Below, one piece after another: positions 58,997 to 64,000 of a stretch of 64,000 nucleotides of DNA (its first letter is position 1; each line of letters starts with the position of its first letter). Source of the DNA: an uncultured Verrucomicrobiae bacterium (GTDB lineage Bacteria; Verrucomicrobiota; Verrucomicrobiia; Limisphaerales; UBA11358). The DNA is taken from NCBI GenBank assembly GCA_963744965.1, contig CAVUVT010000007.1, forward strand, positions 16,642 through 80,641, read 5' to 3'. Position numbers and translations under genes: made by a program. The notes beneath the pieces are model-generated. The model saw only the letters and a list, made by a program, of their open reading frames with translations. It was not told the origin of the DNA and made no database searches.

Positions 58997-59674
58997 TTAA
59001 TTCCCGTGCAAGCCGGGCCTGGGCAGTTCCACCAACGATCCAAAGAAATCCCCCCCGCGCAACGCGACGAGCACCGCCAAACCCGCCAGATCGGCCTGGG
59101 ACTTCACATTTTTCATCACGCAGTTTTCGAGGCCGATTTTTTGCGTGCGGTTGTGGCGCTGGTCTTTCAGGTCAATGAACTTCATCGTGCCGACCGAGAC
59201 ATTCAACACGTCAATGGACTGGAACTCGAAGCCGGTCTGTTTCTTGAAATCCGCCGCGCCATTGCCGCCACCGGCTTTTTTCGGCGGCCAGGCGGCCCCG
59301 AGTGAATAAATATTCGTGCGTCCGGCCTCGTTTTTCACGATGTCGAGTTCCCCCAGGTTGAAGCGCAGGAGCGTGAGGTGAATCTCATGTCTCGCGAGGG
59401 CGGCGCGGTCATATTCGGCGTGAATTTCCGGAATGTCGAGAAACGGCGTGCCGCCAAAATCCGGCGGGTTGTAGAGTTTCAGGTTCTGGATCGTCACCGT
59501 CGGCTCGGTGAGGCCGACCGAAAATCTTCCAATCTCCGCGTCCATGCCGGTCTGGGCGCGGATGCGATGTTCAACATAAACCCGGAGTATCGAATTGAAC
59601 GACAGCAGCAGGATGACAATCGCCACGGCCGCCAAAAGAACCAGCCGGAACAACCATTTAAAAAGCCACTTCAT
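58997..59674 (-). CDS. AsmA-like membrane-anchored protein
   Basis: N-terminal TM; LYNPPDF and beta-rich pattern typical of AsmA/DUF748 N-termini. Confidence 0.6.
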   Translation of the reverse strand: MKWLFKWLFRLVLLAAVAIVILLLSFNSILRVYVEHRIRAQTGMDAEIGRFSVGLTEPTVTIQNLKLYNPPDFGGTPFLDIPEIHAEYDRAALARHEIHLTLLRFNLGELDIVKNEAGRTNIYSLGAAWPPKKAGGGNGAADFKKQTGFEFQSIDVLNVSVGTMKFIDLKDQRHNRTQKIGLENCVMKNVKSQADLAGLAVLVALRGGDFFGSLVELPRPGLHGN

Positions 59675-59746: not shown

Positions 59747-60355
59747 TTAAATGGCGACGTCCTCCGGCCGCACTTCGAGGCATTCGTCCTGGTCCTCCCA
59801 AATGACGGCGGGATAAAGATTCAGCAGCTTCGGCGCGAGTTCGCGGCCCGCGCGCGTGAGCAAACGCTCGGCTTCCTCCGCCGCGTTTTCATAGGCGCGG
59901 TCGTAATCACTCGCGCGCCGGCGCTGGTGATCGTCCCAATGCGCGACGGCATGGACGGGTTCATATTGTTGCGCCCAGGCCTCGAGTTCAGCGCGGACGT
60001 CAGTGGAAATTTCGTCGAACGTCACCAGTGTTTCGTTGCAATGCTGGCAGATCAAACCCGACTCGCGCACGTCGCGCGTGAGCAGCGGCAAAAACGGGGC
60101 GCGGCAGCACGGCGATTCCGCATAAGCCGCCGGCGGCGTGGCCAGCCGCTTGAACCAGACCTGCCGGTCGTGCGCGAGCTGCGCCGCCAGCCGGTACGCG
60201 CCGACGAGCGGGTGCGAGAGCCGCCACGCCCGGCCTTCGAGCTGGCCGAGCGTTTGCGCCAGCCAGCGCCCGAGCGTGAGGTCGTCCCAGTCCTGAAACG
60301 CCCGGCCGTATCCCTTCCACAACGAGTCGAGCGGTGAATCCGATTCAAATGCCAT
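59747..60355 (-). CDS. Hypothetical protein with Cys pairs
   Basis: Host-like codon usage from MAFESDSPLD; SPCCRAP and CQHC. Confidence 0.65.
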   Translation of the reverse strand: MAFESDSPLDSLWKGYGRAFQDWDDLTLGRWLAQTLGQLEGRAWRLSHPLVGAYRLAAQLAHDRQVWFKRLATPPAAYAESPCCRAPFLPLLTRDVRESGLICQHCNETLVTFDEISTDVRAELEAWAQQYEPVHAVAHWDDHQRRRASDYDRAYENAAEEAERLLTRAGRELAPKLLNLYPAVIWEDQDECLEVRPEDVAI

Positions 60356-60484
60356 TGCCGGCAGGATGACGCGCGGAGGGAATTTTGTCGAGTGAGACGA
60401 TAACGCCGCCGGAGGATTCATGCGCCGCCCGCGCCCTTTCGACCGGGCATCCTGATACCACCCCGAGGGAGCATGGCGGAAAGT

Positions 60485-60557
60485 GGAGCGCCGATCTCCG
60501 AACCGGCACGAACGGGCGATTCCCGGCGAACCTTGCCGAACCGGAGTTCGGCGCTCC
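60485..60557. repeat. GGAG-type REP doublet
   Basis: GGAGCGCCGATCTCCG ... CGGAGTTCGGCGCTCC. Confidence 0.75.
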
Positions 60558-60634
60558 GGGGCAGTGTCAAGCTGCGCCCCTTTCAGCCGCCGTTTCACAT
60601 ATTTACATTGAAATACTTTTTGAGATTTGCTAAT

Positions 60635-62734
60635 ATGGCGCCTGTGGCAAAGCGAAAGACTGGCTGCTTATCATGGCACCGGCTGGGAAAAGTCCGGGTG
60701 GCCTGGTTGACGGCAGTGCTGATGGTTGTGCCTGGTTCGGGGAATATGCTTCACGCGGCTGATTTTGTCCTTTCCAGTGTCCCGTCCTCAAATGCGATCA
60801 CCGCTCTGCTGGATTATCAGGAAACGGATTACAGCGTCATCAACTGGGGCGTTTCCCTGACGACGCAAACAATTCCTTTCAGAAAAGAGCCGGCGGCGGC
60901 CCCGGGCAAAATCATCCGCGGCGTTTTGAATTTCGGTGGCGATTCCAGCAATTCAATTCCCTTTGTCTGGCAGCGCGACGCGGGAAAACTTTACCTCGAC
61001 CTCAATCGCAACCAGGATTTGACCGATGATCCCGAAGGGGCGTTCTCCGCCCGCGGGTTCAGGCCGACAAGTTACCAGACTTTCACCAACGTTCATCTGC
61101 TCTTCAACACCGCTTCCGGCAGGTGCCGGGTGCTGGCGGACATCAATTTCCAGGACTACGGTTCGCGGCCAGGTTGCGACCTTGCGGTGCGCTCGTTCTG
61201 GCAGGGCAAACTGACGTTGCAAGGGCGGGACTGGCAGGCGGGCCTCGTCCAAAATGTTTTGAACCCGTCGGGTTCATTCGAAAATAGCCGGTTGTTGCTG
61301 CGGTCCTGGGAAAAACGAAACGAGTCATTCAGCGCCTATAATAATTCGCCCGCCACCGTTCCCTTTTCGCGGAAAATTTTTATTGATGGCCACGCCTATC
61401 AACTGGATCTGGCGGCCAGACCGCCGGACGGCGAAGCCAGGCCCGCGCTCCAATTCACGGAACAATCCGTCCCGCTGGGCGAATTGAAAATCACCGGCAA
61501 TTTTATTCAGCGCCTGGTCTTGTCGGGCGGATCGCATCTCGTGGTGCTCGATCAACCGGCGGCCAGCGTGCAAGTTCCGACCGGCAGCTACAACCAATGC
61601 GACATCCTGCTGGAACAAAATGGCGCCAAGGCTTTTAACAATTCCAGCCAGTCGCAGGCTGGCCGTCGGATTTCCGTGGACGACAAGGCCCCGGCGGTGT
61701 TGAACGCGGGCGGACCGTTGACCAATTCCGTCATTGCCAGCCGCCACGGTCAGGATTTGCGCCTTGATTACCGCCTGGTTGGCGCGGGCGGCGAAACCTA
61801 CCAACTGGCGAATCAAAATCGCTCCCGGCCGCCGGAATTTGCCATTTACAAGGGCGACAAAAAAATTGCGTCCGGCAAATTTGAGTTTGGCTGAGGCGGC
61901 ACCTGTTCGCACTCATGGCGAGTGCCTCCCACTGCCGGCGGCAAACTGACCATCGTGGCCTCGTCCGACCTCGGCGCGCTGGGTTCCCGGGACGGTTTTC
62001 CGGTTGCCTACATCTGGGTGCTGCCCGGCATCGCCCCGCTGCTGCTGCCGTGGCTGGCCATTCTGGGGTTGCTCACCTTGAAGCCCAACCGGTGCGCGCG
62101 TGCCTGGTTGATCTGGCTGCCGCTCGGATGCGTGTTCGTGTTCACACTGGAACTTCTGCCCATCCTGCCGGCGGGAACAGATTTTTTCCTGGATGTCATC
62201 GCCGCGCTGGCCATTGGGCTGGCCGCCGTCTGGCTCCTGTCAAATCATCTGCGACAGCAACATCGCCTGCTCACGTTTCTGTGCCTTCTGCTCGCCCTGG
62301 CGGGGTTCAGCGTGCTGGCCGCGGCGTCAAGACAAGGCTGGAGCTTGATGACCATCGAATCGCTTCAAGTCGGGATTGTGCTGGCCGTCGGGGTTCTGGC
62401 CAGCGCAGTGGCATTGAGTCTTGGCGGATTGATCTGCCGCGGGCGCTACCGTCCGCTCGGACTTTATCCGTGGCTGCTCGTCTTGCTGGCCGTTGTCTGG
62501 CTGGTGATTGCCGCGCCCTTCTTTTTGATCGCGCTGATCGCTTCCGGCGGGAGGATTGCGTGGAGCGGGTTCTTTGTTCCCGTCCTCACGGTGGCGACGG
62601 TCAATTTCGCGACGCTGCTGCCGTTCCTGATTCTGTCATCCGCCAGTCCGTTTTTCCGCGAACGGCTCAAGGCGTTGCTGCATATGAAACCGGAGGCCCC
62701 GCCAGTGGTTGCGCCTTTGCTGAAGCCCAATTGA
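60635..62734 (+). CDS. Exported domain fused through an in-frame TGA (61892-61894, candidate Sec) to a multi-TM domain
   Basis: ORFs ending 61894 and starting 61922 share a frame: GKFEFG-*-GGTCSHSWRVPP; hairpin just downstream of the TGA. Confidence 0.7.
61895..61936 (+). promoter_or_regulatory. Candidate SECIS-like recoding hairpin 1
   Basis: GCACTC-ATGGC-GAGTGC at 61909-61925, 14 nt after the TGA; possible lower stem GGCGG/CTGCC. Confidence 0.65.
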
Positions 62735-62773
62735 AAACTTGAAATTGATGAATAAAAAACCAACCTCAACGTT

Positions 62774-64000
62774 ATGAAACTTTCCAGAAAATTGATTCTG
62801 GCCGGAATGGTTCTCGCCGGCACCGCCTTCGCGCAATCCGAACAATGGCTGGAATACCATACCAGCGCCGAGGGCCACGCCTACCACCAGATGGAACTGA
62901 CCACCAACCCGCCGCCCGGCGTCGCCCTGCCCAAACTGAACGCGCCGCCCTATTTCGCGCGCTGGCAGACGCCGATGGACCCTGCCGGCGGGCGCTGGCT
63001 CTGCCTCGACCGCACGCACAAGTCCGGGCCTTACGACCGGCTGTTCATTGACAGCAACGGCAACGGCCGGCTGGACGACGAAACGCCCGTCCAGGCGCGG
63101 CTGGATTCGTACAACGCCTTTTTTCCGCCGGTCCCGGTCGTTTTCAAGGGCGAGGACGGGCCGATTACCTATCATCTCGCGTTCCGGTTCTATCAATACG
63201 AAAAGAATCCCGCGCAATTGCTGGCGTCGTCCGCCGGCTGGTATGAAGGCGTGGTGAATTTCGACGGCGCGAAAAAACGCATCCAACTGATTGACGGCAA
63301 CGTCAACGGCACGTTCAACGACGTCGCGCCGGACCCGTATGACAGCGACCGCGTCCAGATCGAAGGCGACAAAACCGGCGAGCGTTTTCTGGGCAAGATG
63401 GTGGAAGTGGACGGCAAGCTTTTCAAAATCGAAGCCGCCCGCGACGGCGCGTTCGTCAAGGTGCAAAAGGCGGAAAACGTCACCCTCGGCCAGGTGCGCG
63501 TGCCGGAAAACATTTCCGAATTCGCCGCGTTCGGCGAGAACGGCCATTTCGTGCGCAAACCGGTGAACGGCGAATTCACCCTGCCGGCGGGCCATTACCG
63601 GATCTTCCACTGGACGATCAACCGCAAGGATGAAAAAGGCGCGGCGTGGACGCTGTCAGGCTATAATTTCCCCAAAACCGCCGGCTTCGAGGTCGCCGCC
63701 GATAAAACCGCCGTGCTGGAAATCGGCGAGCCGGTGCAAGCCGTGCTCAAGGCGACCGAGAACCCCAACCGCCAGGTCGCCTTCAGCCTCCGCTTCGAGG
63801 GCCGACAGAAGGAAGCCATCGAGATGCTGCGTGACGGGCAGCGTCCGCGGGGGCCGAAATTGATGCTGGCCAACGCCGACGGGACGTTGTGTTACACGAA
63901 CACGTTCGAGTTTGGGTGAGGCGGCGTTTGTTCGCTCTCATGGCGGGAGCCCAAAAATGTTCAGCGTCCGTTGGCCGGCAGTGTCAAAATCTTCAGCCCC
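62774..64000 (+). CDS. Exported paralog with an in-frame TGA (63917-63919, candidate Sec); frame stays open to the window end
   Basis: Signal peptide, DSNGNGRLDD motif, NTFEFG-*-GGVCSLSWREPK. Confidence 0.72.
63920..63961 (+). promoter_or_regulatory. Candidate SECIS-like recoding hairpin 2
   Basis: GCTCTC-ATGGC-GGGAGC at 63934-63950, 14 nt after the TGA; lower stem GGCGTTT/AAATGTT. Confidence 0.65.

Follow-up and report, generated by a model that had tools for sequence, protein, structure and literature searches.

Known prokaryotic selenoproteins are mostly cytoplasmic enzymes that either adopt a thioredoxin fold or carry a metal cofactor. In this work, we analyse two adjacent genes, A and B, at the end of a 64,000-nucleotide stretch of contig CAVUVT010000007.1 (the window), which belongs to the 3.73-Mb genome of an uncultured Verrucomicrobiae bacterium. 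Both genes run into a TGA directly after the residues FEFG, and both stay open in the same frame beyond it. We conclude, with a probability of roughly 0.85, that they belong to a large unannotated family of exported or membrane-anchored selenoproteins, in which selenocysteine (Sec, U) would be inserted at the in-frame UGA. The family stands out as it is widespread, apparently exported, free of known domains, almost exclusively in the Sec form and often linked to the genes for Sec insertion. The mechanism appears to be the standard bacterial one, and the family appears to be new.

In genes of the fdhF type (Escherichia coli formate dehydrogenase H), an in-frame UGA is followed by a small stem-loop that lies within the open reading frame and within the model of the bacterial Sec insertion sequence (SECIS), an arrangement that genes A and B share. 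They also share the reliance on selA, selB, selC and selD and the chromosomal linkage to sel genes, near which fdhA is often found according to one report (PMC4807772). Unlike fdhF, however, they encode no molybdopterin enzyme, their products are apparently exported and carry no known domain, and Sec would sit in a G-U-G-G-[ST]-C loop. In the window the hairpin loop, AUGGC, differs as well: neither of its first two positions is a G.

DUF1573 is a beta-sandwich domain common in secreted proteins of the Planctomycetes type. Its selenoprotein form (PF07610, motif UGC) is listed in a review of selenoprotein families (PMC13188914) as another predicted selenoprotein with a Sec-Gly-Cys-type motif, but PF07610 matches neither gene A, gene B nor any of 21 aligned family members, and its motif differs (UGC compared to UGG[ST]C); the sole PF07610 hit in the genome lies on another contig (C8) and has no stop. 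Hypothetical protein DG (NF049953, GUxG) resembles the family in its G-U-x-G motif, its lack of a known domain and its computational discovery, whereas the best hit of NF049953 in the genome reaches 17 bits against a cut-off of 130, with none on the contig of genes A and B. The DsbA-like, DsbG-like and thiol:disulfide interchange selenoproteins (UxxC) are likewise exported, with Sec near a Cys able to form a selenenylsulfide (PMC13188914). Their fold is that of thioredoxin and their spacing U-x-x-C. In the family, by contrast, the spacing is U-x-x-x-C, the Cys is not invariant, and no thioredoxin-family model in Pfam matches gene A, gene B or the 21 members.

Table 1 of the review, published in May 2026, gives model accessions for 119 families and subfamilies of prokaryotic selenoproteins, none of which has this motif or architecture (PMC13188914); nearest in motif are hypothetical protein DG and the DUF1573 selenoprotein, neither of which matches at this locus. 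In Pfam and NCBIfam (release 20.0) there was no match at E ≤ 1 for gene A, gene B or the 21 members, save scattered single-member noise, and NCBIfam gave no hit for 23 family proteins. An initial annotation of the window, made from its letters and open reading frames, had not recognised the family as a described one; this holds for Pfam, for NCBIfam and for the 119 catalogued families (PMC13188914).

The proteins could still form a genuine selenoprotein family that is already described under another name, for example as a 'hypothetical protein' from a metagenome survey, given that more than 110 prokaryotic selenoprotein families are recorded and several of these are unnamed hypothetical proteins (PMC13188914). 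We regard this as unlikely: a Pfam or NCBIfam model exists for almost every catalogued family and none fits here, NF049953 and PF07610 have either no match in the genome or one away from the locus, and the database orthologs are all truncated entries named 'hypothetical protein'. In the full-text literature, searches for the motif and for selenoproteins together with these phyla, with survey supplements and BSepDB outside their scope, turned up no relevant description. According to the deep-Sep paper, selenoproteins without Cys homologs may escape its method, a blind spot that would explain how the family could be overlooked.

The in-frame UGA and the frame beyond it

All coordinates below follow the numbering of the window unless a contig or locus is named. 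The features of the two genes are as follows.

60635-62734, + strand: gene A with read-through, 699 residues if the start is the ATG at 60635, with the predicted Sec as residue 420.
61892-61894, + strand: in-frame TGA of gene A, in the context KFEFG-TGA-GGTCSHSWRVP; invariant G-U-G column, with one TGA per homologous match.
61895-62731, + strand: coding part of gene A after the TGA, comprising the end of the Sec domain and a polytopic membrane tail.
61909-61925, + strand: SECIS-like hairpin of gene A, GCACTC-ATGGC-GAGTGC (stem 61909-61914/61920-61925, loop ATGGC 61915-61919).
62774-64000, + strand, continuing beyond the window: gene B with read-through, 423 residues, with the predicted Sec as residue 382 and a signal-peptide-like N-terminus.
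63917-63919, + strand: in-frame TGA of gene B, in the context TFEFG-TGA-GGVCSLSWREP; invariant G-U-G column, with one TGA per homologous match.
63934-63950, + strand: SECIS-like hairpin of gene B, GCTCTC-ATGGC-GGGAGC (stem 63934-63939/63945-63950 with one G-U pair, loop ATGGC 63940-63944).

The observation of two FEFG-TGA genes with hairpins is confirmed. What the initial annotation had read from the letters is present in the sequence: both genes halt at FEFG-TGA, the similarity between them runs on in frame with a Cys four codons further, and the frames stay open, that of gene A up to a stop at 62732-62734 and that of gene B to the end of the window. In gene B the stop comes 41 codons past the TGA, at the equivalent of 64043-64045, 45 nucleotides beyond the window. 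TGA is also, as had been noted for the window, an ordinary stop elsewhere; it terminates 797 of the 1400 long open frames in the genome and is the commonest stop there. In a six-frame scan of the whole genome, the pattern G-stop-GG-x-C occurs five times, and only the sites of genes A and B lie in long frames.

Homologs keep the TGA. When 401 genomes sampled from the phylum were searched in six frames with the read-through protein of gene B (P0003), 14 genomes of 11 genera matched, at 21 places in all and each time with exactly one TGA. A profile built from an alignment (A1) of the domain that surrounds the TGA, about 150 residues long, found 22 matches in these 14 genomes, all again with exactly one TGA; one extra weak match of this profile lies at G299:C249. 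Across the 21 aligned members, the only invariant columns are G-U-G, within a consensus of [FL]-x-[FY]-G-U-G-[GF]-[ST]-C-x-[YAH]-[ST]-[WG]-x-x-P, and a Cys stands at position Sec+4 in 18 of them.

A collection that represents roughly 186,000 species by one genome each was also scanned, with a DNA pattern (TTYGARTWYGGNKGNGGNGGNWSNTGY) encoding FE[FY]G-x-GG[ST]C in which the critical codon, x, may be TGA, TGY, TGG or GGN. The matches listed number 84, on 80 loci and among at least 120 stretches, and 81 of these 84 have TGA at the critical codon and are all clear family members. The remaining three (GGG, TGC and GGC) lie in short frames that have nothing to do with the family, in a Streptomyces record, a Gammaproteobacteria metagenome-assembled genome (MAG) and a Burkholderiales MAG. 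By our own count of record titles, about 53 of the 77 carriers listed are Planctomycetota and 12 are Verrucomicrobiota, including Kiritimatiellia and Lentisphaerae/Victivallales; the others include three Hydrogenedentota, two Omnitrophota and one each of Sumerlaeota, Riflebacteria and Anaerolineales. Every carrier record listed is a MAG.

A profile search over 1.84 billion representative proteins returned 3247 hits at E ≤ 1e-3, of which 936 reach E ≤ 1e-10. We examined 148 of the best 150, after dropping two of more than 1500 residues, and found that 109 stop right at the Sec column, with ends such as ...FEYG, while 39 run through it in a single frame. The close orthologs of gene B in databases (71-92% identity) all end at about 380 residues and have no Pfam domain; those that are named are 'hypothetical protein' and those with a taxonomic label are Verrucomicrobiota. 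The expectation that gene callers truncate the family at FEFG is thus borne out. Three homologs that run through the column, P0023, P0065 and P0045, have a homologous counterpart of the gene A membrane tail (E values of 7e-26 to 3e-16). Gene callers would give the tail of gene A as a separate open reading frame of 270 residues from the GTG at 61922, but because these three proteins have the Sec domain and the tail in one frame, that open reading frame is the C-terminal part of gene A. A tail of this type follows the Sec domain in frame in 26 loci.

That standard gene calling yields two genes, the second from this GTG, is what one would expect if the TGA were an ordinary stop, with a separate 270-residue gene, a regulatory RNA or a terminator downstream and a merely coincidental continuity of frame. 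Against this, the frame is kept over the TGA in all 22 homologous sites of the phylum sample and in all 81 listed from the species collection, with tails of very different lengths, and amino-acid conservation begins at the codon directly after the TGA. The 41-codon tails moreover have the periodicity of coding sequence: in 18 members selected for a tail of this length, pairwise divergence beyond the hairpin is 0.51/0.43/0.62 at codon positions 1/2/3, compared to 0.68/0.71/0.69 over the 20 codons past the true stop of the same members. Non-TGA homologs are single continuous frames, membrane tail included, and no terminator-like T-run follows either hairpin. We thus give the ordinary-stop explanation almost no weight. 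A separate downstream gene was rejected on the continuous frames of the non-TGA homologs and on the conservation from the first codon after the TGA, a terminator or attenuator on the missing T-run, and a pseudogene was rejected as well.

The hairpin behind the UGA

The hairpins of both genes have a 6-bp stem and a 5-nucleotide loop and begin 14 nucleotides past the TGA. Between the two genes, the stems differ by one A-U to U-A swap, which exchanges His for Leu and Val for Glu, and by one U-A to U-G change, exactly as the initial annotation had described them. Since no T-run follows, they do not look like terminators.

When RNAalifold was run unguided on the 21 sites, it arrived at the six pairs named above, and compensatory changes occur in five of them. 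The covariation suspected from two genes extends to the family. We counted pairs over the 21-site alignment for seven pairs, including a weak outer one. In the named structure 87.1% of the cells are paired, compared to 65.0% in column shuffles, and the proportion falls to 28-49% when the 3' partner is slid by one to three columns. Cells changed on both sides number 28, against 8.2 in shuffles. Of the 81 sites listed from the species collection, 76 form all six pairs at the same offset, with at least nine different stem sequences (for example GTACTC/GAGTAC, GCTCTC/GAGAGC, GCTCCG/CGGAGC, GCACAC/GTGTGC and GTATTC/GAATAC). The loop is GTGGC in 51 of these 81 and ATGGC in 17, with few others, and its GG is nearly invariant.

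Because the stem sits within coding sequence, pairs of residues change together. The two arms couple residues that are otherwise unrelated (Tyr/Val, Leu/Glu, His/Val, Ala/Gly and Arg/Pro), which is hard to explain by protein constraints, and a Trp or Gly codon within the loop retains the GG. The stem would thus be a clear case of an RNA signal that moulds a protein sequence.

The bacterial SECIS model, as given in the review, requires a loop of 3-9 nucleotides, a stem of 4-16 bp, a spacing of 16-37 nucleotides between UGA and loop and a minimum free energy of at most -7.5 kcal/mol (PMC13188914). With a loop of 5 nucleotides, a stem of 6 bp and a spacing of 20 nucleotides, the hairpins lie within all of these ranges, and the minimum free energies of 49-nucleotide stretches, -19.3 kcal/mol for gene A and -13.0 kcal/mol for gene B, lie within the limit of the model.

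Selenocysteine machinery and residues at the UGA column

The genome encodes the machinery that Sec insertion would require. selB, selA and selD form one cluster, all above curated cut-offs, and a tRNA-SeC lies on the same contig as the two genes, 3.5 kb downstream of gene B and outside the window (C7:84145-84241). No FdhA above the TIGR01553 cut-off was found in the genome. Across the phylum sample, selA is present in 23 of the 401 genomes, which divide into 13 of the 14 carriers of the family and 10 of the 387 non-carriers; as the genomes are related to one another, we give these counts rather than a statistical test.

The machinery is also often encoded next to the family. Among the 77 loci listed from the species collection, 26 have at least one Sec-machinery gene within 8 kb of the family gene (selA in 15, selB in 13, selD in 8 and tRNA-Sec in 11), and in two genomes of the phylum sample (G376 and G262) selA directly adjoins it. 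In some Planctomycetota loci (L125:5394-6974 and six others), the product of the selD beside the family gene begins with a Cys-rich stretch and ends in a CMD (AhpD-like) domain.

Cys, the residue expected in place of Sec, is the commonest one at the column in the 39 database homologs that run through it (12 of 39; these residues are known from protein sequence only). At the DNA level, a metagenome scan limited to non-TGA codons gave 41 matches, with a single true member, L208, in which the codon is TGC; its hairpin keeps just three of the six stem pairs, a comparison with n = 1. About half of the 41 matches are one recurrent, near-identical sequence that is unrelated to the family (...ARDCS.R.GFEFGCGG-stop, in L178, L182, L185, L186, L191, L195 and others).

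Conservation of the TGA, coding past it, a covarying hairpin and the presence and co-occurrence of selA, selB, selD and tRNA-Sec together support the selenoprotein family that the initial annotation had proposed, and the Cys forms it had asked about exist both in databases and, once, in DNA. We hold the selenoprotein reading of both genes to be highly probable. Several observations nevertheless weigh against it. Three of the 21 aligned Sec members lack the Cys at Sec+4. In 27 of the 39 read-through homologs the column holds a residue other than Cys (8 Gly, 3 Pro, 3 Thr, 3 Arg, 2 Ser, 2 Leu and one each of Gln, His, Ile, Trp, Glu and Val), and this spread indicates that members of the wider family can do without the reactive residue, which calls for caution about a catalytic role. 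In the 92% complete genome of one carrier, G398, neither selA (at E ≤ 1e-60) nor selB (above the cut-off) was detected. As for the hairpin, the SECIS model of the review also wants a G in the first two loop positions (PMC13188914); the AUGGC loop of the window has its G at positions 3-4 and does not satisfy the rule as written, while the commonest loop, GUGGC (51 of the 81 sites listed), does. An Rfam scan of 60600-64000 matched no SECIS family, each of the two hairpins taken singly folds no better than shuffled sequence (z of -0.98 and 0.03), and covariation within a coding region could in principle mirror protein constraints. That the G-U-G and hairpin pattern lies beyond chance therefore follows from the homologs and not from folding energy.

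Gly and Trp at the column, which the initial annotation had named as grounds for abandoning a selenoprotein, do occur, in distant homologs. We do not take this as a refutation: Cys is the commonest residue, the members concerned are divergent and the TGA forms track selA, no strict-motif family member among the matches listed has a Cys, Gly or Trp codon, and the only true non-TGA member in the metagenome scan is a TGC form with a decayed hairpin. The lone Trp could, at a guess, stem from a gene caller that used a table in which TGA encodes Trp.

The same Gly and Trp residues, together with the carrier that lacks detectable selA and selB, would fit a UGA that is read through without selenium, by hairpin-stimulated near-cognate insertion of Trp, Cys, Gly or Arg; downstream RNA structures do stimulate read-through in some systems. 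However, the TGA forms are almost confined to genomes with selA in the counts above, selA, selB, selD or tRNA-Sec adjoins the family gene in a third of the loci listed, and the hairpin fits the SECIS model. The choice of codon was left free in the species scan, yet all 81 strict-motif members listed have TGA, where sense codons would be expected if the product simply contained Gly or Trp. We therefore judge read-through without selenium to be very unlikely. The member in G398 (G398:C31:27697-28149) is the most divergent of all, with FSFG-TGA-GRGQSYSG, no Cys at +4 and an intact hairpin, and the missing selA and selB could reflect an assembly gap or a lineage that is losing the Sec trait.

For the selenoprotein interpretation, we propose that the UGA codons at 61892 and 63917 would be decoded as Sec by the cell's own SelA, SelB, SelD and tRNA-Sec, with the 6-bp stem and its GG-containing 5-nucleotide loop, 14 nucleotides past the UGA and inside the coding sequence, as the putative signal. 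Sec would then occupy an exposed loop rich in Gly, with the invariant G-U-G and usually G-U-G-G-[ST]-C, close to where a beta-rich extracytoplasmic domain ends; there it may form, with the Cys at +4 where present, a selenenylsulfide redox site or a site that binds soft metals or chalcogens. We infer selenium insertion, the loop placement and such a site from these data; a UxxxC selenenylsulfide redox site or a soft-metal or chalcogen site seems most likely, whereas any specific biochemical function is doubtful.

Architectures, neighbours and wider meaning

Of 232 family proteins, 215 have a hydrophobic segment at the N-terminus, and the proteins are for this reason probably exported or membrane-anchored. 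The family comes in a long form with a polytopic membrane tail of roughly 270-310 residues past the Sec domain (as in gene A), a form whose tail is short, at about 40 residues, or variable (as in gene B), and a short form of about 290 residues that is often found beside selA. Gene A has a hydrophobic N-terminal segment, an extracytoplasmic part with the Sec site and a C-terminal tail of 279 residues, in which some seven to eight hydrophobic segments follow the end of the conserved Sec domain. It would thus be a Sec domain fused to a polytopic membrane tail, and gene B a soluble or secreted form.

Structural resources returned little for this domain, also as regards a possible relation to prealbumin- or CarboxypepD_reg-like beta-sandwich proteins, for which Pfam gave no more than scattered single-member noise at E ≤ 1. 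A profile search of the PDB gave one weak hit only (E of 0.66), and the ESM Atlas, queried with the Cys-form homolog P0007, returned only uncharacterised clusters from Planctomycetota and Verrucomicrobiota, without a model. The family profile also hits repeats of giant multi-domain proteins (21 stretches in P0004).

We compared the neighbours of the family gene across 97 loci. In 18 of them a large protein with CarboxypepD_reg repeats lies beside it, whose C-terminal thioredoxin-like domain has QRPS(R/K) in place of CxxC; this protein may be a partner of the selenoprotein. The gene that follows gene B, just beyond the window (L014:4699-8013), encodes 1105 residues with about ten CarboxypepD_reg repeats and a thioredoxin-like C-terminus with a conserved QRPS(R/K). 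A polytopic Fer4_5 4Fe-4S protein is found near the family gene in 14 of the 97 loci, and a Fer4_5 4Fe-4S membrane protein also comes after the tRNA-SeC at this locus (L014:8680-9534). Less frequent neighbours are a class I S-adenosylmethionine-dependent methyltransferase (nine loci) and an HGD-D protein, similar to the 2-hydroxyglutaryl-CoA dehydratase D-component (four loci), with examples at L114:4498-5301, L079:5604-6623 and related loci.

If the selenoprotein interpretation is correct, thousands of family entries in databases are truncated 'hypothetical proteins', with members of the membrane-tail type split from one gene into two, and a model of the family would mend annotation in Planctomycetota, Verrucomicrobiota and related phyla. 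The family may also be a main reason why its carriers retain the Sec system, as it is present in 13 of the 23 genomes of the phylum sample that have selA, and about a third of the loci listed are linked to Sec genes. A broader and rather speculative suggestion, which we consider less likely than likely to hold, is that the family is the principal selenoprotein of Planctomycetota, Verrucomicrobiota and several neighbouring candidate phyla, that it is an exported protein outside the thioredoxin group which, given the near absence of Cys forms among close members, needs selenium itself, and that selection on it maintains the Sec machinery there, a role ascribed to formate dehydrogenase in Proteobacteria. 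In that case an 'obligate-Sec' extracytoplasmic class of proteins may be systematically missed by searches that rely on abundant Cys homologs.

Further candidates with an in-frame TGA were sought in two crude genome scans, which were noisy (293 and 77 candidates), and the first missed the sites of genes A and B owing to its loop rule; we draw no inference from them about other selenoproteins. Contigs of relatives from metatranscriptome runs (at least 85% likeness) span both TGAs, at 61766-62853 and 61863-62029 for gene A and at 63794-63934 and 63713-63929 for gene B; they do not show transcription, and nothing is inferred from them.

One further feature lies at the start of gene A.

60608-60636, + strand: sigma-70-like promoter match TTGAAA-17-TAATAT, a consensus match only, which is not evidence of function.

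A TG precedes its second hexamer. As the match runs over the ATG at 60635, this start of gene A is in doubt, and translation may instead begin at the in-frame GTG at 60644 or at another site. Upstream, on the - strand, are an open reading frame of 283 residues without a Pfam match (59747-60598) and one of 225 residues that resembles an N-terminal fragment and matches DUF748/AsmA (58997-59674).

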